Source: Jimgerdemannia flammicorona (lineage: Eukaryota). Taken from it: 63,875 nucleotides of DNA. The notes beneath the pieces are model-generated. The model did no database searches, was not told the DNA's origin, and saw only the letters and a program-made list of their open reading frames with translations. Of this stretch, positions 1-59,463 are shown one piece after another (within the stretch, counting starts at the first letter, position 1; each line of letters opens with the position of its first letter). The translations under genes and the position numbers were made by a program. Where the stretch lies: the NCBI GenBank assembly GCA_003990765.1, contig RBNJ01000015.1, positions 1-63,875 of the forward strand, read 5' to 3'.

Positions 1-1187
1 TTAATAGACTCATAGTCTTACAGATTTTTATTGGAAGGAAACCTAGACTATATAGGCCAAAACCCTCCCCCACTACCCACTGAACAATATCCCCCCATTA
101 ACCTAGGCTACTAAATTGTCCAGCAGTCCCACTGCTCCAGCTATACCTGTTGAACACTGGCTATGTCAACCCCCATGACATATACTAGACATGTCTGCTC
201 ACCAGGGCTGGATCATCATTTACACATGAGAGCACACCTATGCGTCAGATCTAGCAGCACCAGGACTAAATAAAGAATAGCCCCCCAAACCTCAAAAGAA
301 AGCCTGAGGCAAAGAAAAAACCCCCCAATCAATCAACAGAGAGCAAAGCAGATTCAAAGTGGGTGAGTAAAGGACTTATATATAGCACCTTCCTCAAAGG
401 ACTTACACATGGGCTAGGGCCTGAAAAGACTCCACTCCCACTCTCCGAGCCTGCAGGCCTTGATTACATTACCATATCAGCTCTCAGTTCCAGTTGGGTA
501 CTGCCAAATGAGGAAGGCCCCACTCCCCAAGCCTGCAGGCCTCAATTGTATTGCTGCATCAGCTCTCAGTTCCAGTTGGGTACAGCCAGAATACTGGCCC
601 CTGCACCACTCCACCCCCCACCAACCAATCAAAAGGCCTCACTGAAATATTATCTGCCTCAGCCCCAATGACTGCCCTCAGTCTGATACCCCACTGGTCT
701 ACCATTATCACCCATCCTCCTATCTGTGATGGCCATCTCCCCTCCCATCTCAACAACATCCAAAAAACAGTCACCTATGCCAGAATCACACTCGCCAGGA
801 TGCTCACTAAAGCCAGAGGGCCCCACCACAGATACCAAGGACCTGCAGATAACCTACACTGAGCACTTGACACCCAAGGTCAGCCAACTCCCTACATAAT
901 CCATGACATACTGAGACAGCACCTTGTTGGCAACAGCAAAAGGAAGAAGGCACTGCACCAAAACAGATATACTCCAGATGTAGCTAAAGGCATCAGAAAC
1001 TACAAAAAAGTAGAGAAGACACTGATCCGACATCAATAAAGGGGCAACTTATCACTATTGCCCTCCTCCCACTATACCCATACAGATATAGCAAACCAAC
1101 CCAAGGTAGAGGGGGTAATAATAGGGGAAAGGAGACTCAGAAGGTCACCTACCAAACCTTGTGACCAGTAAGGTAGTGGAGAAAGGG
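1..1187 (-). mobile_element. ~1.2-kb non-autonomous poly(A) retroposon (SINE-like), copy 1, inserted into the 3' LTR of Gypsy family A
   Basis: Homologous to 57798-58965 over ~620-1187 and ~1-130. Both copies share the 5' end (minus strand CCTTTCTCC[A/G]CTACC) and the 3' end AATAAAAAT...GAGTCT[A/G]TT(A)n. No recognisable ORF. Confidence 0.7.
435..595. repeat. Internal tandem duplication of a ~65-bp module, with an ~82-bp period
   Basis: ccactc..c.agcctgcaggcct...tcagctctcagttccagttgggta occurs at ~438-500 and ~520-582. The second retroposon has a single copy at ~58220-58285. Confidence 0.8.
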
Positions 1188-1189
1188 TC

Positions 1190-2168
1190 ATATATATCAT
1201 ATGTTTTGCATACTTCATACATATTGTAAAGGATAACATCATCACTAATGATATCATCACATTTAGCGGTAGCAGAGACTCTCCAATCTATGAGGTTCTC
1301 TTCCACAAAATAAGAAACAAATGTAGAGTCTTGGGGAGATCTAACCTGGATGCTGGGGCCTTGAAATGCTAAGATCAATTGTTGCAGAAATTGATCAGGA
1401 TTGTCCTCAAGAATGAAATTTCAGAATTCTCCTACCTCATTACTGTTGAGAGTAATAGTAGACTGGGTTTCTGTGGCCACCATGGCCTCTAGTGTATTAG
1501 TATAGTAGACTGACAGTTCCTTGAAATCTGAGATCCTAGTGTACTCTAAGTTGGGAATTGATCATAGTGTATACCTGAAGACCTGGTAAATCTTCTTAGC
1601 TATCCTTATTTCACATACATCTATGGAGGTGATATCTTGTATTTCTTAGTGACTAGTCTGAGGGAATTTCCAGTAGAGGAGGTATTCTATTTTATACTCC
1701 TACCATATCCAGAGGCATTCAGTAGTGATAGTGATCCTTGTTTCTATTTCATAGTAGTAGAAGATATAATGATAGGAGTCACTAGTACTCAGGTTGATGC
1801 TAGGAGTCCTTCTTGTATGGGTCCTTGTAGCTCTTCTGATATCTTAGAACATCTTTTCCTGGACTGAGGGGTCTTAGTGGTTTCTGAACCTTGAGGTTTG
1901 GTAAGCAGCAGGCATTTTGTTTATAGTAAGTCTTTAGAACTATTTCTGTGAGCTTTGTTTGGATTGCTACTACTGTGGTTTCTTGATTCTTCTTTTATAT
2001 TTCTTGAGATGTCTGTCTTATGGTCACAATAACTCACAGTTGGTCATTATTGCTCATCTTATAGTCTGGATAAATTATGCCATATAATCTTCTTGTGCTT
2101 TGATCTGGTGACTTGTAAGAAAAGACTGTCTCCTATGCTGATATCATTATTCTAAGATCACTATTATA
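1190..2168 (-). repeat. 3' LTR of family A copy 1, interrupted at ~1188 by the retroposon
   Basis: Colinear with 8460-9439 and preceded by the polypurine tract. Confidence 0.9.
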
Positions 2169-7868: not shown

Positions 7869-9439
7869 TGTTACATAGTAGTCACTGAGTCCTTCAAATG
7901 TATCAGATTCTCTCTAAGGTATATCTCTTAGACTAACTACAAGTTTGTTATAAGTAAGTTTTTATTGAAGTATCTTCCCAAGGTCTTATAGTCCTTAAAC
8001 TTCTTATCTTTAAACTGTCTTATTATCTCTTAGATTACTTATATGGAATTGAGAGTAAGTAAACTTGACTGACTTTATTCTAAAGAAAATAAGAGGGATA
8101 TTTATATAAAATATAATTTGATGGTTGCTAAGTTATAAAGCTAAATATAAATTCCAATAACCAAATAAAATACTGGAACATAGAAAACTACAGTTGTAAG
8201 TATAAGTTCAAGTATATGTACAAATAGTTGCATAAGTTCAGGATATTAGTAGAATTTCAGTAATCTAGGAAAAGGATATCAGAAGAATTTCTAGGTTATA
8301 CAAGATCAGAATGTCAGAAGAATAACAATTATATAAGAAAAGAATACTGGTAGAATCCAGTATTACTAAGAACTTAAAGCAGAATATTCAGATTCATGAG
8401 TACTTCATCTTCATCATTGCTGAAGGAGATGAGATCTATAAACATTTCATTCATCTCATTGCATATGTCATGTATTTCATATACTTCATGTATGTTATGT
8501 GGAATGATATCATTACTGATGATATCATCACATTTGGCAGTAGCAGAGACTCTCCAATCTATAAGGTTCTCTTCCACAAAATAAGGAACAAATGTGGGGT
8601 CTTGGGGAGATCTAACTTAGATGCTGGGGCCTTGGAATGCTGAGATTAATTGTTGCAGAAATTGATCAAGATTGTCCTCAAGGATAGGATTTCAGAATTC
8701 TTCTACCTTATCACTGTTAAGGATAATAGTAGACTGGGCTTCTGTGGCCACTATAGTCTCTAGTATATTGGTATAGCAGACTGATAGTTTCTTGAAGTCT
8801 GAGATCCTAGTATACTTTAAGTTAGAGATTGATTACAGTATATGTCTGAAGATCTGGTGAATCTTCTTGGCTATCCTTATTTTGCATATATTCATGGGGG
8901 TAGCATCTTGTATTTCTTGGTAACTAGTCTGAGGGAATTTCCAGCAGAGGAGGTTTCCTATTTCATACTCCTGCTATATTCAGAGGTATTTAGTGGTAAT
9001 AGTGATCCTTGTTTTCATTTCATAATAGTAGAGGATATAATGATAGGGGTCATCAGTATCCAGGTTGACACTAGGAGTCCTTCTTGCATAGGTCTTTATA
9101 GCTCTTCTGATGTCTTGGAACATTCTTTCCTAGACTGAGAGACCTTGGTGATTCCTGGACCTTGAGGTTTACTAAGCAGTAGGTATTTTGTTTATAGTAA
9201 GTCTTTAGAACTATTTCTGTAAGCTTTGTTTGGATTACTGCTACTACAGTTCCTTGATCCTTCTTTTATATTTCTCAAGATGTCTGTCTTATGGTCACAA
9301 TAACTCATAGTTAGTCATTATTGCTCATCTTATAGCCTAGATAAATTATGCTATATGATCTTCTTGTACTCTAATCTGGTAGCTTGTAAGGAAAGGCTGT
9401 CTCCTGTACTGATATCATTATTCTGAGATTACTGTTACA
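7869..9439 (-). repeat. 5' LTR of family A copy 1 (1571 bp)
   Basis: TG...CA termini; TATAAAAG box at ~9270 on the minus strand; matches 1190-2168, 34857-35402, 39390-40895 and 41322-42321. Confidence 0.9.
8374..9186 (-). pseudogene. LTR-embedded ~270-codon ORF of unknown function
   Basis: 813 bp (271 codons) from AAA-ATA to TAA. The ATG is intact in the 3' LTR copy at 1915. The frame can be restored by comparing LTR copies, and stops differ between copies by transitions. Confidence 0.7.
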
Positions 9440-25300: not shown

Positions 25301-26032
25301 CTTCCAGAATCTTAGTCTACTAGATCCTTATTCTTTAGGATTACAAAATCACCATCATCTATAAAGCAGGAAAAGCTCACAACAATTTTGATATATTTTC
25401 CCATCAGCTCCAATGAATCAGAAGAAGGGTGTCCCCAGGAACTATACTCTAAAGGAAGCTCCTCAGACTATCAAGACACAAGAAGATCTCATCTGAAAAG
25501 AATATCAAAAAGCCCACCAAGGACAGGCAAACATAGAAGAAAAGCTATGAAAAATATACCAACATTGGCCCAACCTTAGAACTCAAGTCCAGGACATACT
25601 CAAGAAATGTGATATCTGTCAGAAGTACCAAAGAAGAAAGAACCATCAAGCACCACTATAACCAATTATACTACTAGGCAATATCTTTCAGAGATAGAGA
25701 GTAGATGTAATTAGACCCCTACTAATTATACTAAGAAGAAATAAGTATATTCTTATATTCATAAAATATCTGATCAAGTAACCTGAGGCTTTTCCAATAA
25801 AAATTGCAGATGCCTTAACTATTGTAGACCTTTTCCATAGACTCACACTCAGATATAGACTCCCAGAAGAACTCATCTCTGACTGAGGTACAGAATTCAT
25901 CAATAATATAATCATAAGTTATGCCCAAATTCACACTGGTAACATTCAGGTGATATAAGACTCAGGCAACACTTTCGACAATGTTTTTGGTAAAAGGCAA
26001 CTAGCAATATAGAAAGTGATGAACATACAGGT

Positions 26033-29000
26033 GCATGTACTAGGTCGGGTGGACCTAGGGCCTTTGACTGGCAGCAGGTGGGGAGGAGTTATGGCCTGGG
26101 GATGGGGGCCTTCAGAGGGCCAAAGAGTGGAGAAGGCTCTGGAGGGGGACCAGTGTCCAGTGGCAATGGGGGAAGATCTGGTCTCCTGAGCTTTGCAGAC
26201 AAGGTTAAGGGGAGTCGGTGGCCAGCTGGTACTAGGGCTGGTGCTGCTGAAGGGAAGGGCAAGGTGAGCCTTGGGAGGGGGGGTGGTGCTCTGACTGGGA
26301 GTGCAGGCATAGGGGCTGGAGGTGCTATGGCTGGGGGTGTGACTATTGATGGGGTGTGATGGGGAATCAGGAAAAAAAAAGAGATGTGATGGCTGATGGC
26401 CAGGTGGAGCAGGGGTTCTCGATATAGAAGAGGAACCTGGCAGATGGTGTAATGGGGCTGGTAGTGACTCTGTTGCTCAAGAAGTCAATCTCAGAGTTTG
26501 TAGTGACCTTGTGCTTCTGGGGCTTGGCAGTAATGGTGAGGATGGTTCTGGGGCTTGTTTTGAAGCAGGTGGCTGGGGCAGCCTCAGTGAAGTTCTTGAA
26601 GGGTCTGGAGGGGGTCAAGGTGGGCTTTGAGAAGGTAGGCCCACTGGATGAGGCACTGAAGACTGGAGTCATGGTTGGGGAGATAGTGGTCTCCATGGTG
26701 TGGTGCTTGTGATGGGACCCCAGGGTGGTGCAGCTTCTGGTGAAGGGGGTGCCCATGGTGACTAAGGAGGAGACTAGGAAGAGGGTGGAGGAGGTGATGA
26801 TTGAGTATGGTGATGTGGTGGACATTGGCTTTCAGGTGTAGGAGGGGACAACGATAAGGATGGGCAACATTGATGTCAGGATTTGGCTGGTGGGCAAGGA
26901 GGCTATGGGGAAGGCAAGTGACTGGTCTTCTGTGCTGATGTGGGGGGCGTTCATCTGTAAGGTGTCAAGGGTGAAGAGGAGTAAGGAGGAGGAGGAGGAC
27001 TTGTTAGAGGTACTGGAGGAGATGAGTGGAGCTGTGGAGAGGAGGGCAAGGGCCTGGAAGATGTTTGAGGAGTCAACACATCTGGAGGTTGTGGATGGGA
27101 AACACATCCATACTGACAGGAAGCAGTAGGAGCAGGTACAGGAGCACAGGAGGCAGAGAGAACTACTTGCAAGTATGAAAGTAGAGGCAAAGCAGAAGGC
27201 GGTGAGAGCTGAAGGGTCTGGGGGTGTCAAAGCCAGTATTTGGGTGAGTAAAGGGGTTGGGGAGGTAGAGGCAGGCAAGGAAGGGGCTGAAAAGATACTG
27301 AGCAAGGACCCCTATACTGATGGCACTTTCGAGGTTTGGGAGCAGAAGCGATGGACAACAGAGGATACATCAATGAAGGGGGCCTAGCAAGTGTACTTTG
27401 GAGTCTCTGATGTGGAAAAAGGGGGTCAGGTGGTGGTGGTTGGTGAGGATAAGCTAGTGGATGTCCCTGAGGAGGAGTGGGATGAGGCTGCCAGTGTAGG
27501 GGCTGACACCATGATGTTGGACATGGGATGGCCAGGGCTCCAGGAGGGAAGGAGGTGGGGAACTTGCTGTGGATGAGCAAGGTGATGGATAACCTCACAG
27601 CTGAGACTTTGAGGGAAGTGGACCTGCAGGTAATGCCTGAAGAGTATTGGACATAGATTTTGCATGGCGAGGGAGTGGTGGAGGTACTGAAGGGGGAGAT
27701 TCTTTCGATTTTCCTAAAGGAGGAGGGATATGAGATTGATGAGGTGAGGAGGGCTGAGCTAGCAGTGGTCACTGGTGAGCAGGCAGCATACGGTTGGGTA
27801 GAGTGGTATGGTTTGCAGTTCTGGTAGGAGGCCTGTCTGGAATATCATGAGGACTTTGAGGAGCAAGAAGATGGGGCAATGGTAGAACTTCTGGGAGGGT
27901 TGGAGGCACAGGAAGCTGGTGAAAGAGAACTAGCTACTGATTATGACTTGGATTTGTTGCAGGAGGAGTGGGATGTGGAATTGTAGAGGGTGGGTTCATG
28001 ATACAACTTTTTTTCTCTTATAAACAGTACAACCAACATCTTCTCTTTGAATGTGAATAGGCTAAGGGGATCTGGGCAGCATAAGAACATTTTTAATTGG
28101 CTCAAGGGATTGGAGGCCAATCTCTTTTTACTGCAGGATGTTTGGTGTGAGGATGAGGATGATCAGGTTGAATGGACTAGGGAATGGGGTGGGGCTACTA
28201 CTTGGTTTGGAAAAGTGGCGATTCTGGTGAGGAAGGGTAGAGGAGACTTGGGGGGTATTGGGAGCTGGAGTGATTGCTTGGTCTGGGGAGATTGACATTG
28301 GCCAGGGTGGGAGTTGGTGAGGGTTGGCTCTTGCTACTGCCCTGTGGCTAGGGGTGAGAGGATTGCATGGATTAAGGAGCTACTGGAGGAGGGTATTCTC
28401 TTGGTGGAAGGGGTTGATGTGCTTGGGGGGGACTAATATGGTTCGGGATCAGCATCTGGACCAAACTGATGGTGAGAGGAGTATAGGAGAGAGAAGTGGA
28501 GGCCTGGATGCATGAGAGGAGGTGGAGCAGCTGAGCTCCTTAGGGGATATGGGCAGAATACAATGGGGCAACTCCAGGGTCTACACACATTGGGTGAATG
28601 GCTTAGGTATGAGAATTGACTGGATTCTGATAGCAGAATGCTGGGGGTCTGATGTCTGGAAGATATTGGAGGTGGAATAGTGCCCATAGTCTGATCACTA
28701 GGGACTGTTGGGACAGAGGTAGTTTGGGGGGAGTGGAGATGGACTTGGACATTGGTGCCTTAACTCCTCCCTGCTGGCTGAGAAGGGGTTATGGGATTCA
28801 TAGGTGGAGGACATTCAGGCAAAAGTTTCTTACTGGAGGTATGAGGGTTTATCAGTGGATGTCCATTGGATGAGATTGAAAGAGGCTACGAGGGTCTATT
28901 GGGGAGGGGCTGGGAGAGAAGCTGGGAGACAGAGGAGGAAGTGCACAAGGTGTACTTCCAACAGGCTGAGGAGAGTGCAAATGGATTGGGCAGGTTTGCT

Positions 29001-31742
29001 TACTTCTGATGGAGTAGAGGATTGGAGGTTAGTGTGGATTAAATTGGAGATAATGGAACTGCAGCAGGTGTTGAAAGAAGAGGAGGAGATGTATATATGA
29101 GGTATGGCTACTAGGCTAAGATAGCAGGGCTTGAGGAGGGTGAGCAGTCTACTAGATATTTATCCCATCTGCTCAAAGCTAGGAGGGTGAGACATTGGTG
29201 GGATAGAGTCCTAGATACTGATGGGGATATGGTACATGGCATGCAACAAATCTTAGGGGTTTTGAAGGAGAGATGACAGAGTTTGTAGAGTAAGGAAGAA
29301 GGGGGTATTGATGAGGCAGCTATTGAAGATACATTAGGGGAATGGAGGCCACTGCAAGTGGCTGGACTGGATGACTTGGCCTTGCTGGTGCAAGGTGAGG
29401 AGATCCAGAGTGCCCTTGTGGCAACTAAAACTGGAACAGCACCAGGAGAGAATGGACTACTGTGGGACTTCTGGAAGAAGATAGTTAAGGTCTCCAGCAT
29501 TTTGGGTGAGATGACTGCTCTCTGTGATCATGTTCTTCAGAGTGGTGAGTGGGTTGGAGAGCAGGACCTCAGGCTAGTGGCTTTATTGTACAAAGACAAG
29601 GGGAGGAGAGAAGACTGGAAGAACTAGTGACTGATCATGCTTTTGGATATAGATAGAAAGATGGTGACTAAGGTGGTTGTTGCAAGGCTACAGAAGGTTG
29701 CCCAACAGGTGCTGGGGGAGGAGCAGCGGGGCTTTGTTGGAGGCAGACTTATAAGAGATGGGACTGTATGTCATTGAAGGAGCCCAGGCTTGTGGCCTGG
29801 ATGGAAGGTTGGTCTTCTTGGACCAGGAGAAGGTCTATGACCAGGTCTAGCAGGTTTGGCTGGACAAGGTGTTGGATCATATTGGTGTTTCTCTAGGATT
29901 TCGGGCTTCTATGGTGAATCTGCTAGAGAGCAGTCAGGCGGCGCTGATGTGTAATGGTCACTGTAGTCTGGCATTTATCTTGAGAAGAGGGATTCCTCAG
30001 GGGGACCCCCTGTCCCCTATTCTTTATACCCTCTCATTGGAACCATTGATGGATAGGATTTGCCAGAAGGTAGTAGGGCTCTCTATCTATGACATAGTGT
30101 GGAAGGTGGGAGCCTTTGCAGATGATATAGTGGTTGGCCTTGGGTCTGTGGCAGATGTCGAGGCACTTAAGGAGACAGTAGAATGGTATGAGAATCACTC
30201 TGGGGCAAAGCTCAACTGACATAAGTGTGAGACTATGGTGCTAGGGAATGGGCTGGTGGGTGGGGACATCATTGGAACAATTGTCCCTACTGGTGAGGTA
30301 GTACAGTATCTGGGCATCTTCCTCTCTGTATATGGCTCTGTCTTGCCATGAGTGTGGTGGGAGAGCAGGGTGGCTGTTTGGGGGGAGACCCTTTGAGGTT
30401 GGGGAGGCTGCCATATCTCTCTAGTAGAGCAGGTATCAATTCTGAATATATACTGGTTCCCCAAGCTGTGGTATGTGGCCTACTACCTAGATTTCTCAGC
30501 TTGGGTAGTGAAGAGGCTGACAAAGGTGGCTAGGGATTAGATTTGGGCAGAGAGGAGGCCCCAGATCAGTTGGGATACTCTTGTGACACCAGTGGTCAGG
30601 GGAGGTCTTGACCTTGTGGATTTTCCTAAGAGGTTGCACTGCTTGCGAGCCTGGTGGTTGAAGAGAGCAGCTAAACTGCAAGGAGGGGGTTGGGTGCCTC
30701 TGCTGCAGAAGGTGTGGGAGATGAGAACCTCTCCCTGAGGGTTCTCAGGAGATCTACTCTCTTTGGTAGAGCTCAATAGAATTTGGAGGCTGTAGTTTAA
30801 GGGCTTTTGGTGGAGAGTGGTTGATGGAGTACACAGAATTGGTCTGTGTTGGCAAGGCAATGAGGGGGTGGTGTTGTGGGAACCTAGTATATGGCAATAG
30901 GATAGACTGCTTCTGGGGGGTGCTCCACTTACTGCTTTTGATATTGGGGATGGAGTGGAGTGTCAGCAGGGTCTTGGCCAGGATCTTGGCTGAGTGGTTA
31001 GTAGGCAGTTGGGATTGGTGAGGAGTGGGACTGGGCAGGTATCTGGTCTTAGAGTGCTGAGGTATGGCAGTGGCTTCCCCCCAAGTTTTGGGTGGTGTGG
31101 TGGCGAATGCTATAGAGGAATGTCATGCTGAATTTCCACACTGGATATCTGGTAGATGGTGGCTGTTTCGATTGTGAGGAGTATTACAATGTAGGGCAAG
31201 CTGGGGGTTTGGTGCAGATGCTGGAATATTGGCTGGGAGAGTGTGAGGTTTTGGGAGACTTTTGGGTTGAAATAGGGAATAGACTGAGTGTAGAGTACAG
31301 GCTGGTGGATGAGGGGGATTGCTGGGAGGACTTGAGATCTTGGCTAGTAGGGGGGGTGGGTGATAGTTAGCTTACTGTCGGGTGGGTGTTAGTAGTTTGA
31401 GTGGGATTGGCAGGATATTGGCTATTTGTATTTGAGGAGAGGTGGCAGATGAGACTACAGGAGAAGGTTTTAAGGTGGGAGGAGCTGTTGGAGGATCTGA
31501 TGACTAGATGGTGGATAGGTTGGAGTCCTTCAGGGGGGCAATGGTGAGGTTTGGTGGTGAGGATATGCAAACAGAGTGGTGGAAGGGTAGGGATTGTATT
31601 CGATAGATTGGTGTTTTATCAAGAAGGGGTAGGGGGGAGGGGCCCCTCTAGGGGGATTGGATAGGGGGTGGGTTTGCTGTACTTATGAGATAGATGGGTG
31701 TAATAAAGGAAGAGTCCAAGTGACTATAAAAAAAAAAAAAAA
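26033..31742 (+). mobile_element. Non-LTR retrotransposon, L1/Tx1-like clade (ORF1 plus APE-RT ORF2, degenerate)
   Basis: APE start FSLNVN.LR...FLLQD ~28040; APGENGL ~29440; EQRGFVGGRLI ~29720; RGIPQGDPLSPILY and AFADD in ORF 29869-30219; AATAAA at 31702 and poly(A) 31729-31742. The 5' boundary is approximate (25927-26035). Confidence 0.92.
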
Positions 31743-32824
31743 TATGCAAATAGACCACATCATACTACTCTCAGACCAATAGTATGACAGAAAGAATGAA
31801 CCAGACTATCAAGAAAAGACTTGCCTGAGTTAATCCTACTAACTGAGACCTCTGCTTACCTGAGATTCTATGGGAAATTCAGAATACCCCTGCTGCCTCC
31901 ACCAAACAGAAGCCATTCAAAATGATGTTTGTCAAGAAAACCAAAACTACTGATCATGAGAATCTCAGAGACCTCCTCAAGAAGGCAGAACAGTTATGTA
32001 ATCAAGCCTAAGCTCAGATTATCAAAGCTCAAGAAAGACAAAAAAGTACTATAACTAGAAGCAGAAGGATCAAAAGATCAAAATTGTAGATCAAGTACTA
32101 GTTTGGAGAAGTATGATTGAAATAAATTTTGCTACCAAACTGGAGCTCAAGTGGAAAGAACCTTATCTTATATACAATATCAGAGGAACCAGCATCTATT
32201 TAAGAAGCATAGATGGATGAACCCTCAGAACACTAGTATACATCAACTACCTTAAGATATATCTTTCCATTATAAACCAGAAAATTGACAACTATCTCTA
32301 GACTCTTATCCTTAGTTCTCTCTAAGCCCTATCAATTCTTCTGCCACAGTTCTGAGAGCCCAATGGAATATATCTTCAAAGAATCTGGATCTATCAAGAA
32401 AACCTCACTCTGGCTGAGAGACTACTTCAGATCCACCAGCTATAGACCTACTATGCAATTAGAATAATTATAGAATCTTCTCCTCTCAGACCTGGTCTAT
32501 GTCTGCAATACCACTGATCTGAACAGAAGAAATATCACTGCTGTAGAAAGATTATATACAATCTACAAATGAAATCCTTCAGCTCTAATCTAGACCCAGT
32601 TCTTTCTGAATTATCTCTAAAAAATAGCTCTGCCCACCTACCTCAGTATTATTCACTAAGTTGAGATCCTATTTCTCAAGGAAAAAGAAGAGCCTTTAGA
32701 ATGGAGTGACCATAGTATAAACAATGAAGATGATGGAACAGGTATAGATACAGAAGCTACTTATGCTTATTGAGATGATGACTGAAGAATAGTCTGAGAC
32801 AGACTATCCTTTAGTGAGGGCTGA

Positions 32825-53922: not shown

Positions 53923-55617
53923 TTACCCTTTCAACCAAACCACATCCCCCACGACCTCCATTCCTCCAGCAACGCCAGTATCTTCCCACAAAATCTCTTC
54001 CGTCCCCTCCACCCTGCGCCAAATCTTCGCCCTCACCACGGCATCCAACGTCTCCTCCACTTTGAGCCACATCGCCTTCCCGTCCCGACCAGGAGCCCGC
54101 AGGGGTACCCCGCCCCCGATCACCCGCGTTGCCGTCACCTCCAGGAAGAGCCGCTCGCGTCGGTCCGAGACCATTAGGTGCACGCGTTGGGTTAACACAA
54201 GAGGTGCAGACGAGTCGGTCATCTCTGGAGTCGGAGGGGAATCGGGATCGCCGTGGTGGACGGTGATGTCAAGACGGTGCTGGCGCGCGAAGGTGTAGGT
54301 CGAGAAGTTGAGGAGGGTCTTGTTTTTGGGGGGGGATTGCGTGTCGAAAGCGGAGGCGAGGGAAGACAGGGCAGATGCATCACTTAGGTGGAGCGTGATT
54401 AGGCGGCCGGGGAAGTGAAGGTACGAGCCCAAGAAAGGGAAGGTGTTGGTTAAGAGAGTGGTCAACTGCCAGTTTGGGTCGAGGAGAGGAATGTCAGCGA
54501 TGGAGATCTGGGTAGAGGAGGGCAGAGGGTTAGGGTTCGTGCAGGTGTCTCGTACGCATTTGCAAACCATAAACTACAAACGCGAGTCCACCACGCCCAG
54601 ATGAACAAAAGACATACATACCATCAACCCAGTCCCCGGGCTCCTCCCAAAGCTATTCGATTGTATCCAAATCCAGCTCTGCGGGAAATACATTCCCCAA
54701 TCCTTCTCAATATACCCTTCCCCAACTCCTTCACCAACCTCGAACTTCTCCACCAACTCCTTCCCACCCTCGCCCTCAGGATCCCAAAACTCCACCTCCC
54801 CCCGCACGCCATGATACATGCTTACAACACCATGATTGCACTCCAGAAACGGTAAATACGTAAACGGGCCCATCACACTCGGCGCATACGCCGTCCGCGG
54901 CAGCGGATTTGTCTCCGTGAACACTAGTGACCCCGTCACCGACAGTCGCCGGGGGTTCACGCTCGCCTTCGGCTTTGGCGCGAGAGTCTTGAGAAGCAGG
55001 GAGAGAAGCGCATCGGTCTCCTCAATGGGCGCTTGCTCCGCGATGATGCGCGTAAGGTCATGCGCGATCTGCGCGCGGTATGCGTCCCACTCCGCTTCCT
55101 TCACGTCGACGAGCCGACGAGCATCCAGCGATGCCACAATCCCACTTTCATCAAACACGTTCCCAGTGCCGATTCGTATGCGTAGCTGCCCTGCGTTCAG
55201 AGCGCGTTCATCGTGGAACTCCGAGGCTCCGAAGCGGTAGTACAATGTTTCGGGTAGCGCGTCCGCGAAGACCATGATAAAGGCGTGATCGGCTATGCGG
55301 GAGTCAGAATCACCGCGTGCGCGGAAGATGCCTGGGATGAAGACTATTGAAGTGTGTGTGCGCGGGTCGACTGTTTTGAAGTACCAGCCTTCGAAGAAGG
55401 AGGAGCCCACGTGTCGGCCATGGTAGTGTTCGGGGTGCAGAGCGTTCTCGACGTTGCCCAGGATCAGGGCGAGCCGCGCCGTGCCGGTCGCGTGGAGGGT
55501 GTAGGCGAGGAGGGAAAGGACGGTGGTGAGGAGGACGAGGACGGCCTTGGTGGTGGTGGTAGTGGTGCGGTGGCGGGTAGAGAGGGCGGTTGGGTCTCTG
55601 GGTTTGGGTTCATTCAT
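53923..55617 (-). CDS. Tocopherol cyclase-like protein with an N-terminal membrane anchor (exons 55617-54622 and 54507-53923; ~526 aa)
   Basis: FFEGWYFK, MGPFTYLPFLECNHGVVSM.H, GYIEKDWG..FP..WIWIQSN.F. A phase-0 GTATGT...CAG intron joins the two ORFs in frame. Confidence 0.88.
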
Positions 55618-55732
55618 GGCTCAGAGTTTCAGAAGGGGTCGTCTTTTCATGTGAAGGTTATTGCAGTTGCGTCACGAGTGTGACCAAAATAAGAAAAGGG
55701 AACGTATTTAGATGTAGATTCTCTCATTGACG

Positions 55733-55870
55733 CCTACATTGGAACCTATACATTCCTTTTTTTTTTTTTAACGGAAGGAACCTATACATTCCTTATCAAA
55801 CCTCACATTACTGTGTAAGTTACAAGTCCTGCAAGGGAGTAGGCTCCCGCGCCAACCCTTTCAGGCTGAC
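55733..55870 (-). ncRNA. Putative omegaRNA scaffold / right end of the IS607-Fanzor element
   Basis: Consecutive hairpins GUCAGCCU-GAAA-GGGUUGGC, GGGAG-CCUA-CUCCC, UUGCAG-GAC-UUGUAA and CUUACA-CAGUAA-UGUGAG overlap the Fanzor 3' end. The CCUA loop is complementary to the terminal UAGG, suggesting a pseudoknot. Confidence 0.7.
55741..55794 (-). mobile_element. Micro retro-insertion TTCCGTT+(A)n with a perfect 18-bp TSD
   Basis: GGAACCTATACATTCCTT at 55741-55758 and 55777-55794, flanking T11+AACGGAA. Confidence 0.85.
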
Positions 55871-57320
55871 TCTTGGTGAGGTAATGAAGGAGAATGTTGC
55901 GAGCGCCATTGAAATTGTGGTCAAGCTTCGTCTGATATGCTGGACAGTGAAACACCTTGGACCCACCTAGGCCATGGTGGAGATATCCACAGTACCTGCA
56001 TGTCTTGGAAGTGTACTCTTCTGTACAGAGAATGATCTGACACCATGGGTGCTCACATCAGATGCTGCTGAAAACCGAAATGCAACTATGTACACATTGC
56101 ATGTGTAATCTTAGAATGAATACGATATTGCCCTGGCAGGAGAATGATGTAATAGTTCTCACACAGCCACCGTGCAAGCTTGTGATGGCAGTCATCGATC
56201 AGGCACTGTGGATATGCAGCATGACATGCCGCAACCTGTAAATTGCAATTTTGTATCCCTTTGACTGTAGATAAGATCATCTTTTAAAATCATTTAGCAG
56301 ACAAATTAAAGTTTGAAAAAAATGATTTTTTGAAACATTGTTTTTCTGTTAAAAATATATCTCAATTTATTTAAAAAAAAAAAAAAAAAATTTTTTATAA
56401 AATTTTTACCAAAGATAGAATTATTATATAATAATTTCTTTTTTAAAAGCTATTATGATTTTAAAAGTTATAAACTTTTAAAATCTTACCTCTAAATATA
56501 AGTGCAAAACAGTCAAAGAGATATAAGTTTGCATAAGTAAATAAAATACTTTAGCAAAAATGATGTCTGCTCAAATTCAATCTCATATATACCAAACTAT
56601 CTCAGACTGATCTGTAGTATTATGCTTGTTCACCTTCTTATAGATGCTGTCCTGCTTGCTCTACAGCCTGTCATATATGGTTCAGTCTGTAGATACAAAC
56701 AATATTATTTTTCTCCCAACCCACTTAGGTTGTATCTAGTTATAAATATTTATATACTAGAATCTAGTACAATAATCTCTACATCTCTTTTACCAGACAT
56801 AGGGCCTTGGCTCTCAATCTACATATTAAGAAATATAGAGATATAGAGATAGAATTTACTAAGATGATTTATCATAAGCTGACTATCATATCTAAGACTA
56901 ACTGGTAGAGGCTCAGAAGATCTCATATTGAAGAGAAATATAAATTTACCATATGATTTCTCCCAGTACTTGGAAAGTATTATAACTAATTATTAATGAT
57001 CCTTTTTTAGAATAAAACTTCATTTGAAACATCTTGTATTTTACTATAAAGTTAGAGGTATACTCCTTGAGAAGATAATTCATAGTCTCATCATAGATAT
57101 TATATAATATCTTCAGAATCAACTTATCATTATTCTTGAAGTTGAAGGTATTGAGATACTATGTTTATAGATCTTTCTTATAATATTTTATATCTTTATT
57201 TTGAACTATAGTGAGGTACTGATTGTAGGTCCACCATGCTGCCTCCATCTATGCTCTGAGCCTTTTCTACTTATTATAAGAGAGAAAAGGTAGATATATT
57301 GCATCTTACTTACTAGAGGT
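55803..57320 (-). pseudogene. tnpB: Fanzor2 / IS607 TnpB RNA-guided nuclease
   Basis: W(T)YNQ ~57230; RuvC-I IIVLDS(G)...FIT.YN ~56760; LIDDCHHKLARWLCENY.IILLP; EHPWCQIILCTEEYTSKTCRYCG...LGGSKVFHCPA...LD(H)NFNGARNILLHYL (RuvC-II Glu, Zn finger, RuvC-III). Confidence 0.92.
56241..56611. mobile_element. ~370-bp AT-rich insertion splitting the Fanzor gene
   Basis: Fanzor coding sequence resumes on both sides. CTGTA is repeated at 56236-56240 and 56612-56616, a possible TSD. Confidence 0.55.
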
Positions 57321-59157
57321 TTTTCTTTTTTTCTTAGAGATCTTAGACTTCTTTAATAATTTCTCATCTTCTTTTGCAATTAGCAGTAGAATATACATAA
57401 CTCATTATATCATACTATAAATACTGTAACAATGGAAAGTAGATCTTTTGCAAACTTGCTAGTCTCATTACTAAATACTAATATCAGAACTAAGTATCAT
57501 AAGTTGAGTTCTATTTTTTACAAAAATTTACTCTATGAGCTCTGATCTGAAATGACACAGCTGGTCTTTTTGAATAACTACCACTTTTTCAACTCCTCCT
57601 ACATATATATATTCCAAAAAAACTATAAAATCTCTGCATTTCTAGTTAAGTTCTGAACTAATATCACTAACAATCTTATAGTCTGAGAAATACTGTTGCA
57701 GGTCAGCAATTTGTTATTCAAGGTCTCATTATTGATGTTCTCTGGTATAGCAGACCTTGACCTTTTTTGTGGTCTAGTTTGTTGGTTAGTTGTTTTGTTT
57801 AACAGACTCTATGTCCCATGAATTTTTATTAGAAAGGAATCTAGACTATATAGGCCAAAACCCTTCTCCACCACCCATCAAGCACTGTCCCCCCATTAAC
57901 CTAGACTAGCTATTGTCCAGCAGCTCGACTATGCCAGGCACAGCAGGGCAAAGTAGCCCACACCTCATTCTGCACACCATACTCTCCCTACTACCAGGGG
58001 AAACCCAGCCATATACCAATGACCGAAAGCACATACCCAAGAACCCAACATATGTACAAGGCCATGCTCAAGCCAAATAGAATAGCCCCTGCCACTCCAA
58101 AGAGAATGACAGGCAAAGAAAAAACCCTCATCAAAGCACAATATGGTGGGTAGGGCCTGGTTCTCCCAGTCGAGGTGAGTAGAGAACTTACACGTAAGGC
58201 AGGAGGAAACCCCCAATACCCCACTACTCAAGTCTGTGGGCCTCGATCATGTTGCCATGTCAGCTCCCAGTTCCAGTTGAATATAGCCAAGATGCCTGAA
58301 ATGGGTAGCCTCGAGCCCCCCGACCCCCTCTGACAACTGGGGCCCAACTCCATGAATTGCCAAAAGAAGCCGAGAGTGACACCTATCACCTAACCATACC
58401 GCACCAATCAAAAGGCCCCACTGAAGCAGCACCCACTCCAGCCCTGATGACCACCCCCAGCCTGGCACCCTACTGGTTCACCATAATCACCCTTCCTCCT
58501 ATCTGTGATAGCCATCTCCCCTCCCATCCTGATATCACCCAAAAAACAGTCACCTACGCCAGAACTGCACTCGCCAGAAAGCTTGCCAAAGCCAGAGGGC
58601 CCCACTACAGGCACCAAGGACCTGCAGGTAACCTATACTGAGCACTTGACACCTAAGGTTGGCCGACTCCCTACATAGCCCGAGACATACCGAGACAACT
58701 CCTAGTTGGTGACAGCAAAAGGAAAAAGGCACCGCACCAAAATGGGTACACCCCAAATGCAGCTAAAGGCACCCGAATCTGCGAAAAAGTAGAGGAAGCA
58801 CTGATCTGATACTGATAAAGGGGCAACTCATCACCATTGCCCTCCTCCCACCATACCCCTGCAGGCACAGCAAACCAACCCAAGGTAGAGGGGGTAATAA
58901 TAGGGAAAAGGGGACTCAGAAGGTCACCTACCAAACCTTGTGACTGGTAAGGTAGCGGAGAAAGGAGTCTTGTTGATTGATTGTTACCAAAAGCTCTTCA
59001 CACATCTGTAATAAAGTAGTCATTTGCTACCAGAGGTTCTGACAATGGCAATTTTTCCAAAGATGGCCCACTGTTGCAGTGTTTCAACCAAGACATCATA
59101 TATCTCTTGTATTTTGCTCATGCTTGTGTATGTAGTATTGGTTTGAGCCTGGTGTAT
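57280..59157 (-). pseudogene. tnpA: IS607 TnpA: MerR-type HTH plus serine recombinase, interrupted by a retroposon
   Basis: (M)HQAQTNTTYTS.SKIQE.YDV.VETL..WA..GKIAIVRT.G.K.L at 59157-58990; KVCY.R...HQ..DLE.QIADLQQYF.DY.IVSDI.S.LN.K...VV..KD.LC.F..EL...DLLSIVTVF at 57770-57420. Confidence 0.92.
57798..58965 (-). mobile_element. ~1.2-kb non-autonomous poly(A) retroposon, copy 2
   Basis: Homologous to 1-1187. 16-bp TSD TTGTTG(G/A)TT(AG/GA)TTGTT at 57779-57794 and 58970-58985, differing only by transitions. Confidence 0.8.
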
Positions 59158-59463
59158 TTTGTAGGATTGTGGAATAATGCGGAGTATTCACAAAAGGTAA
59201 TATGCGCGTTTCGCATGTTGCTTTAAAAAGGTAACGCCACTAAATGTACGGTCATGTGAATTGATAAGATGAATTGTGTGGTTTATTCCGGAATGTTCAA
59301 CGGTTGCTCCAATCAATACTGCAATCCAAGGTTTTCGGTCCAAGAGTTCGGCGAGGGTAGGGTGGGTGGCTTGGATGCACGGATGTGACGTCATATGCAC
59401 GCAACTGAGTTTTTGATATTTTTCCAAGAAACACCCAAACTCACATCCACTCACAACCACATC

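Follow-up and report, generated by a model that had tools for sequence, protein, structure and literature searches.

How a run of broken reading frames and a hairpin-rich tail on the minus strand of a fungal contig should be read, where the element they compose begins and ends, and whether it can still act are the questions raised by contig RBNJ01000015.1 of Jimgerdemannia flammicorona (63,875 bp; the whole stretch analysed, hereafter the window). Positions 59304-55730 (minus strand, 3,575 bp) are very probably a dead copy of a eukaryotic IS607-type transposon carrying a Fanzor2 gene. The first-pass annotation of this sequence had proposed a decayed IS607-type TnpA with a Fanzor2 nuclease and a guide-RNA scaffold on a fungal chromosome, a reading borne out by an IS607 transposase profile (NF033518), a nuclease domain (PF07282), collinear relatives and a structured 3' end. 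It had also called the element complete. This is refuted: a nested repeat and 360 additional bases interrupt it, parts are deleted, and there are at least 10 stops and 3 or more frameshifts. Since the recombinase nucleophile motif and the DPG and DRD motifs of the nuclease are lost, the copy is unable to act now; it is a pseudogene derived from a Fanzor2 member, not a working member. The parts of the element are as follows.

59122..59304, minus strand: left end, non-coding, with ACCGTT at 59304-59299 and one arm of a sub-terminal inverted repeat at 59296-59275
58966..59142, minus strand: MerR-type helix-turn-helix (HTH) part of the tnpA pseudogene, possible ATG at 59121-59119
57801..58965, no strand assigned: nested non-coding repeat in the tnpA linker, about 1.17 kb
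57206..57800, minus strand: serine-recombinase core (57779-57489) and C-terminal tail of tnpA, overlapping the Fanzor start
55803..57398, minus strand: Fanzor2 (TnpB-like) pseudogene, collinear by tblastn with 35 relatives and bearing PF07282
56211..56570, minus strand: 360 extra AT-rich bases (G+C about 20%), in phase, between the R and C codons of KKIR/CLIDDCHH
55730..55870, minus strand: guide-RNA (omegaRNA, or right-end element RNA, reRNA) scaffold remnant, covariance-model match of 74.8 bits, E=2.8e-12
55710..55729, minus strand: predicted guide-equivalent flank CAATGAGAGAATCTACATCT, host DNA adjoining the right end

The transposase gene and its nested repeat

Translated in three frames, the minus strand of 59600-55400 gives, in order, an HTH-like stretch (..VETLQQWAIFGKIAIVRTSGSK..), a block of odd composition of about 1.2 kb, a recombinase-like stretch (..DISSELN..VVVIQKDQLCHFRSELIE..), a stop-ridden TnpB-like frame and the hairpin-rich tail. 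With the frames read through stops as X, the NCBIfam model NF033518 (transpos_IS607) matches 57779-57489 over profile positions 49-153 of 187 (E=1.2e-13), while residues 2-43 of the MerR-fused relative P0068, its Pfam PF00376 part, map by tblastn to 59142-59017. A serine-recombinase TnpA, scoring below the cut-off of its model, is therefore joined here to an N-terminal MerR-like HTH, the latter recognized by tblastn, as expected of an IS607 element. The nucleophile motif, YARVSS in relatives, is unreadable at this locus, where YTREHQ stands instead.

A metagenome scan yielded 80 loci of relatives, among them L001, which is collinear with the window in four blocks.

Window 59195-58972: block 1, L001 373-602
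Window 57787-57568: block 2, L001 592-821
Window 57577-56649: block 3, L001 885-1814
Window 56056-55779: block 4, L001 2083-2397

The HTH part is 66.5% identical to L001 373-602 (blastn), and the tail of the window tnpA, DLLSIVTVF, agrees with that of locus L014. From the collinear blocks it follows that 58965-57801 (about 1.17 kb) is an insertion: the sequence is not present in L001, where its two sides abut at 592-602, and intact relatives lack it as well. The same repeat recurs at window positions 1-1229, with 70.3% identity over 1260 columns. Readings of the insert as a solo long terminal repeat or as coding sequence were rejected, given no Pfam domain in the six frames tested and no clear border duplication. 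Its strands are strongly asymmetric, the plus strand being rich in C and A, and the second copy lies at the very start of the contig. Many contigs of sequencing runs X1-X3 fall on this repeat, and it is covered by 1,628 contigs of a soil-metagenome run and by many X1/X3 contigs at 85-99% likeness.

In L014, and identically in L002, tnpA contains a 65-nt GT..AG intron with a TACTAAC branch site (L014 1981-2045), which separates VVTRK from DRLCRFG; the window tnpA is continuous at that point.

The Fanzor2 pseudogene and its relatives

An overlapping RuvC/zinc-finger nuclease downstream of the recombinase, as first proposed, is confirmed by PF07282 and by a collinear frame at 57398-55803. Residues 33-413 of the relative P0004 (416 amino acids) map in order to 57287-55833 (tblastn), and the 35 relatives mapped in this way cover the entire nuclease frame. 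The C-terminal open reading frame of 84 amino acids, which is stop-free and reads CTEEYTSKTCRYCG...LDHNFNGARNILL, matches Pfam PF07282 (Cas12f1-like TNB) with E=6.1e-10 and 39.6 bits against a cut-off of 26.3; six other open reading frame pieces gave nothing above cut-offs in the domain search. Through this domain and its collinearity with relatives of the guided_TnpB class, the locus is recognizable as a TnpB-type RuvC nuclease with a C-terminal zinc ribbon.

A search with the C-terminus returned 434 candidates, 424 of them with E<=0.001. The best named relatives belong to Glomeromycota fungi (64-71% identity over the C-terminus), and others include many soil-metagenome proteins as well as brown-algal, yeast (Lipomyces) and cyanobacterial (Microcoleus) proteins. 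The NCBIfam guided_TnpB cut-off was passed by 7 of the 11 relatives tested. Yoon et al. describe a fingerprint of Fanzor and pro-Fanzor proteins, RuvC-I DPG combined with a Glu six residues before the first CxxC (PMC10711439), and an expression for this combination is matched by 103 of the 120 relatives listed. Among solved structures the best match of P0004 is 9b0l, 'TnpB-like protein L79', at E=5.4e-24 and nearly full length, compared with only E=3.6e-07 for the ISDra2 TnpB structure; SpuFz1 is not among its PDB matches at E<=0.01. In the window itself the diagnostic positions are found in the following states.

56764-56756, minus strand: RuvC-I motif, DSS in the window, DPG in the family consensus
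56021-56019, minus strand: shifted catalytic Glu, six residues before the first CxxC, kept
55937-55935, minus strand: fourth zinc Cys, Tyr in the window
55922-55914, minus strand: family DRD motif, DHN in the window

The window DSS fits a decayed DPG, as P>S and G>S would each require one C>T or G>A change. The shifted Glu stands in E-EYTSKT-CRYC (56021-55989), and three of the four zinc-ribbon cysteines are kept. The RuvC-III Asp of the pattern D-x-N-G/A-A-x-N-I is not found: against the invariant LDRDxNGARNI of the family the window reads LDHNFNGARNI, with Asn for the Asp before xNGA.

Damage extends along the whole frame. Segments aligned to the relative P0005 contain 10 stops, and the successive high-scoring segment pairs lie in frames 2,1,0,0,2, which implies at least 3 frameshifts; a deletion of 10 residues after LLP (30 bases, near 56134) was also found. 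No residues of P0004 or P0005 correspond to the 360 extra AT-rich bases, and the 593 bases of the window at this place stand against 269 in L001; the stretch may be an insertion or a degenerate intron. Of the borders that an intron would have, the 3' side ends in CAG, but the GCAGAC at the 5' side cannot be derived from GT by C>T/G>A. At the other extremity of the gene, the nuclease N-terminus (57395-57310) is lysine-rich, reading KEDEKLLKKSKISKKKRK in the window and EEDEKLPKPKKNKSSK in L014 (about 2230-2300), and resembles a nuclear localisation signal such as that described for ApmFz2.

Over 2,059 bp, loci L002 and L014 share 99.6% identity, yet their flanks are unrelated, and the lineage has accordingly been mobile recently somewhere in soil; L002 is a copy 5'-truncated by 110 bases. 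The living form of the element is about 2.1-2.2 kb. It had been suggested that an ancestral nuclease and scaffold could be rebuilt from multiple copies; this is needless because intact relatives exist (P0004 and P0005; loci L001 and L002), and these recently mobile soil-metagenome relatives with a tnpA intron are better enzyme material than a resurrected consensus.

Element ends, target motif and guide

The right ends of L001, L002, L014, L016 and the window all finish in ..TGTAGGCGT and then diverge. A contig of the same organism from run X3 (record 17, 1,841 nt) aligns with 55777-56053, with 14 mismatched letters and 16 letters in gaps, and its loose end, compared by eye as the reverse complement, has the same terminal 11 bases next to a different flank. 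The shared right ends and this contig together place the right end, as judged from alignment, at 55730; they also uphold the earlier suggestion that the element has moved within this genome, in that contigs of the same organism include at least one further copy, next to another right flank. At the other end, ACCGTT followed by GAACATTCC.G.A.AAACCAC is common to the window, L001 and L014, whereas the sequence upstream differs in all three, and the left end therefore probably lies near 59304; between the two left-end motifs the window lacks 11 bases present in L001 and L014. The span of 55733..59236 given in the first-pass annotation was accordingly too short, by 68 bases on the left and 3 on the right. 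Near the termini, 59275-59296 and 55786-55807 form an imperfect inverted repeat (22 nt, 77% complementary; 1 of 195 pairs reported).

GGCGT is constant at six of six right ends (window, L001, L002, L014, L016 and the X3 sibling contig), each with a different flank. As CGT never varies, the variable guide should start at 55729. The flank beyond the right end had already been proposed as the guide, and the location holds; the proposed sequence included the constant CGT and so began 3 bases early. A GG recombination core had likewise been expected, and the conserved termini ACCGTT... and ...GGCGT do not bear this out, their common core being CG(T). No target-site duplication is seen, the flanks reading GGAGCA up to the element and CAATGA after it, and both ends carry CGT, in keeping with IS607. 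In the model of Yoon et al., crossover occurs at a shared dinucleotide with fixed flanking bases (PMC10711439); taken together with CGT at both ends, this suggests a target ACCG/T (the slash marking the point of insertion), a target-adjacent motif (TAM) resembling (A)CCG, and a guide beginning after the constant T.

Two likenesses among flanks were noted. The sequence ACCGAAA(A)CCTTGGA (14 of 15 bases) is common to the left flanks of the window (59339-59325) and L002 (about 120-137); it abuts the element in L002 and lies 20 bases away in the window, and may reflect a favoured target, a former end or coincidence. In their right flanks, L001 (2411-2421) and L014 (3560-3568) resemble one another over some 10 bases (TAACTYAATA), while the elements themselves share only 88% identity; this likeness may hint at target preference or homing.

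The guide-RNA scaffold and its pseudoknot

The 188-nt tail folds with -59.6 kcal/mol (z=-4.4), beating all 200 shuffles, and its scaffold is composed of the following parts.

55870-55851, minus strand: upstream stem, conserved in relatives, overlooked by the first-pass annotation
55848-55835, minus strand: pseudoknot hairpin, with the loop CCUA at 55843-55840
55834-55823, minus strand: conserved UUGCAGGACUUG of the scaffold
Within 55730..55870, minus strand: hairpin across the stop codon
55741..55776, minus strand: private 36-base duplication (TTCCGTT, A13 and the second copy of a 16-base unit)
55737-55733, minus strand: 3' strand of the pseudoknot, GUAGG, with the terminal UAGG at 55736-55733
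55732-55730, minus strand: constant CGU after the pseudoknot strand

Four clean hairpins had been described here. Two are features of the family, while hairpins 3 and 4 are the two copies of the 16-base unit, produced by the 36-base duplication. L001, L002, L014 and L016 lack these 36 bases, and the X3 sibling contig stops fitting at 55777 and continues directly to the terminal 11 bases; 55776-55741 are for that reason regarded as a duplication private to this copy.

The proposed pairing of the CCUA loop with the terminal UAGG proved to covary among relatives. Loop and terminus, compared by eye, are CCTA/TAGG, CTTA/TAAG, CTAC(A)/(T)GTAG, CTCG/CGAG, CCTGT/ACAGG, CTTG/CAAG, CCTTT/AAAGG and CCTAG/CTAGG, and in relatives the covarying terminal strand sits just before the terminal CG. 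In a seed of 14 sequences, 95.7% of cells are paired, and the figure falls to 26-45% if the partner is shifted by 1-3 columns. With a covariance model in which the hairpin but not the pseudoknot is encoded, 27 matches were obtained in 81 sources; 24 of the 27 aligned rows have both pseudoknot sides, 3 being cut by contig ends. In this alignment 97.9% of the cells of the four pseudoknot pairs are paired (slid controls 44-62%), and three of the four pairs show changes on both sides, in 10, 4 and 6 sequences. The two unpaired cells belong to a doubtful match at window 9106-9228 (E=0.36), which was rejected: two of the four pseudoknot pairs fit there, and no relative protein maps to that place. 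Helix extension gives CCUAC:GUAGG as the pseudoknot core. The variable stem just upstream could not be aligned by MAFFT/RNAalifold and was followed by single-sequence folding, in which it is found in 20 of 22 sequences, with z<-2 in 18 of the 22.

Judged by this covariation, the loop-to-terminus pairing is a real pseudoknot of the known TnpB/Fanzor2 type, and it stands beside the guide as in Fanzor2. The literature describes this pseudoknot as shared by IS607 TnpB and Fanzor2 (PMC10711439, PMC11832414), and the pairing also agrees with that of ApmFz2, in which the 5' region has positions -4 to 0 as its partner (PMC11832414).

How the living element would have worked

The working steps of the living form can be drawn up from established knowledge of IS607, TnpB and Fanzor2. 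A serine-recombinase transposase, with a MerR-like HTH and a catalytic core, would move the element as double-stranded DNA, and its gene would overlap that of the Fanzor2 nuclease. A scaffold RNA would be transcribed from the 3' part of the nuclease gene together with the right end; its hairpin loop would pair with 5 bases near its own 3' end to form the pseudoknot, and it would continue into host DNA as the guide. The nuclease-RNA complex would then cut the empty donor site beside a short motif, and repair would restore the element. The present copy inserted into the promoter region separating two divergent fungal genes and later underwent heavy directional C>T/G>A change, the nested 1.17-kb repeat, the addition of 360 bases, deletions and frameshifts.

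Host setting

One of the two genes adjoins the element directly.

54574-55617, minus strand: tocopherol-cyclase-family gene (PF14249), directly downstream of the right end of the element

About 113 bases separate the start codon of this gene from the right end, which places the insertion in a shared promoter region. The encoded protein is 100% identical to an NCBI protein of an Endogonales (Mucoromycota) fungus, and both flanking genes are spliced in X1 and X3 contigs (joints 54507>54622 and 59829>59951). Matching contigs leave the greater part of 56574-57743 and 59148-59381 uncovered, a gap that is informative neither on expression nor on absence. The spliced flanking genes and the fungal flanking protein mark the genome as eukaryotic, as the assignment to Fanzor2 demands.

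Elsewhere in the window, 25900-32100 (plus strand) holds a decayed retroelement resembling a long interspersed nuclear element (Pfam RVT_1, E=1.8e-14), whose sense strand is unusually G-rich, with a GC skew of +0.33 to +0.51 at a G+C content of about 50%.

Weighing the identification against other readings

Several observations count against the identification or parts of it. The NF033518 score of 51.1 bits is below the curated cut-off of 110, as expected since the copy is a wreck, and NF038280 (IS607_TnpB) gives no significant match to the window (E=0.22). Of the profile matches anticipated in the first-pass annotation, those to an IS607 transposase (NF033518) and the TNB domain (PF07282) were obtained, whereas Pfam Resolvase or MerR was absent in the three read-through frames of the window, in which only PF07282 matched. 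Five of the top relatives (P0001, P0002, P0006, P0007 and P0026) do not match the expression for DPG and the shifted Glu, perhaps because their gene models are truncated. No Rfam family was found for the window at the gathering threshold or for six relatives at E<=1, so that no described TnpB-associated RNA family such as RAGATH-18 (PMC11061315) was matched. The left end is known from three sequences only and needs an 11-base indel that MAFFT placed elsewhere, which is why 59304 is given as a probable position; the TAM and guide start are read from the junctions alone, and the ends lack the GG core described for ISXfa1.

Could the element instead be bacterial, either very recently transferred or an IS607 belonging to an endosymbiont or a contaminant, with a TnpB outside the fungal Fanzor2 lineage? 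Endogonales are known to carry endobacteria, Microcoleus TnpBs are among the matches with about 55% identity over the C-terminus, and NCBIfam models of bacterial TnpB and IS607 recognise the family. This origin is nevertheless highly improbable, because the element lies on a single contig of 63,875 bp between spliced genes and beside a fungal protein, shares its directional decay and CpG loss with the surrounding fungal repeats, and has a host repeat nested within it; moreover, its closest named relatives are fungal and a spliceosomal intron interrupts tnpA in a close relative. A different doubt concerns the conserved 3' structures, which might be DNA sites for binding or synapsis by the recombinase, and not, or not only, an RNA scaffold. 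IS607 ends carry transposase-binding repeats, the sub-terminal inverted repeat (59275-59296 / 55786-55807) would suit such a role, and a motif ACATTCC ... AAAC..CAC can be read by eye at both ends of L014. We consider this account improbable too, since covariation of a loop with a strand some 100 bases distant, by Watson-Crick and G-U pairs, characterizes an RNA pseudoknot and not protein-binding repeats, and since the same pseudoknot is seen in ApmFz2 by cryo-electron microscopy and is needed for ISXfa1 activity (PMC11832414, PMC10711439); both roles are in any case compatible within one sequence. A decayed fungal IS607/Fanzor2 copy with an RNA scaffold thus remains the preferred reading.

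Pattern of decay

Decay was counted over the central 1.1 kb, in the 504 columns in which four relatives have the same base. In 133 of them the window has another, with 47 C>T, 51 G>A, 17 further transitions and 18 transversions, so that the earlier statement that most damage is transitions (115 versus 18) is correct. Conserved C/G positions were lost by C>T/G>A in 98 of 216 cases, the changed fractions by context being 19/24 for CpG, 21/39 for CpA, 14/35 for CpC and 5/28 for CpT, and of the 43 cells with stops, 32 are aligned to Q, R or W. Across AT-rich bins totalling 20.5 kb (for example 1-25 kb, 32-43 kb and 56.2-57.8 kb), CpG observed/expected is 0.03, compared with 1.09 in the flanking genes, and CpT/ApG is in excess (1.4) in the AT-rich blocks. 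The 3' 350 bases of the element are far less mutated (10 of 52 conserved C/G changed), with a sharp change from the heavily mutated block (G+C about 30%) to this lightly mutated part (44%).

Directional C>T/G>A confined to repeats is what repeat-induced point mutation (RIP) would leave, and one tentative, rather unlikely explanation is that a RIP-like, repeat-targeted cytosine mutator in Endogonales (Mucoromycota) silenced the IS607/Fanzor2 element, while a far less mutated sibling survives elsewhere in the genome. Behind it lies a pattern in which some 45% of the conserved C/G are converted, by context CpG > CpA > CpC >> CpT, within a sharp-edged block. To our knowledge, the host lineage is not one in which RIP has been described. 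The alternative, ordinary deamination of methylated CpG together with drift and no repeat-targeted mutator, has in our estimate an even chance of being right: CpG is the most affected context and is nearly gone from the AT-rich bins while retained in genes, RIP is described from Dikarya, and a kingdom-wide RIP survey, in the passages available to us, treats Mucoromycota for genome size and gene presence/absence and not for RIP (PMC12543289). CpG alone, however, cannot account for the 98 of 216 conserved C/G lost, as CpA and CpC are heavily changed too while CpT is largely spared, nor does it explain the abrupt shift at the 3' part. RIP-like decay is the most interesting loose end of this analysis, and, if general in Mucoromycota, would bear on transposon restraint in early-diverging fungi.

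Comparison with known systems

Elements of this kind are already known and the present copy is ordinary. The association of Fanzor2 with IS607-type elements goes back in the literature to Bao and Jurka (PMC3627910), and Saito et al. report that Fz2 occurs broadly in fungi (PMC10432273), so that one more dead copy changes little. A literature search on 'Fanzor' and 'Glomeromycota' found no paper, though supplementary tables, which lie outside such a search, may list this genome. What the natural insertions of this lineage offer is a free read-out of a scaffold pseudoknot with rich covariation, of element ends and of a likely (A)CCG motif.

Fanzor1 proteins such as SpuFz1 are likewise eukaryotic, TnpB-derived RNA-guided nucleases with DPG and the shifted Glu, but they belong to other transposon superfamilies and have no pseudoknot (PMC11832414, PMC10711439). 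ISXfa1 of Xylella fastidiosa, an IS607 TnpB/reRNA system, also has a serine-recombinase partner and a pseudoknot needed for activity, and its constant right-flanking base belongs to the scaffold and not the guide (PMC10711439), to which the constant T after CG is analogous here. ISXfa1 differs in being bacterial, with a GG crossover and the TAM GGG, whereas CGT stands at both ends of the present element, with no GG core. The cyanobacterial 'pro-Fanzor' TnpBs are prokaryotic as well, and their genes, being bacterial, are without spliceosomal introns, unlike the lineage described here, with its 65-nt tnpA intron and lysine-rich nuclease N-terminus. They share with it DPG, the shifted Glu and an IS607 TnpA partner (PMC10711439), and Microcoleus proteins are among our matches.

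The Mimivirus IS607 element with ApmFz2 (9b0l) combines, as here, a serine-recombinase TnpA with a Fanzor2 that has the rearranged catalytic Glu, and ApmFz2 is the best structure match of P0004, as given above; in its omegaRNA a 5' loop pairs with the bases adjoining the guide as a pseudoknot (PMC11832414). It differs in its giant-virus host and in its TAM, GGG as against the (A)CCG suggested here; in the present element, moreover, three constant bases (CGU) lie between the 3' strand of the pseudoknot and the flank, and the window copy is a pseudogene. NlovFz2 of Naegleria lovaniensis, an active protist enzyme and not a dead fungal copy, is likened to our element by its TAM and not by sequence comparison. 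It is also a Fanzor2 of a cellular eukaryote, and its measured TAM, 5'-CCG (PMC10432273), corresponds to the ACCG at the left junctions, so that the likely (A)CCG motif read from natural junctions agrees with one determined by experiment.

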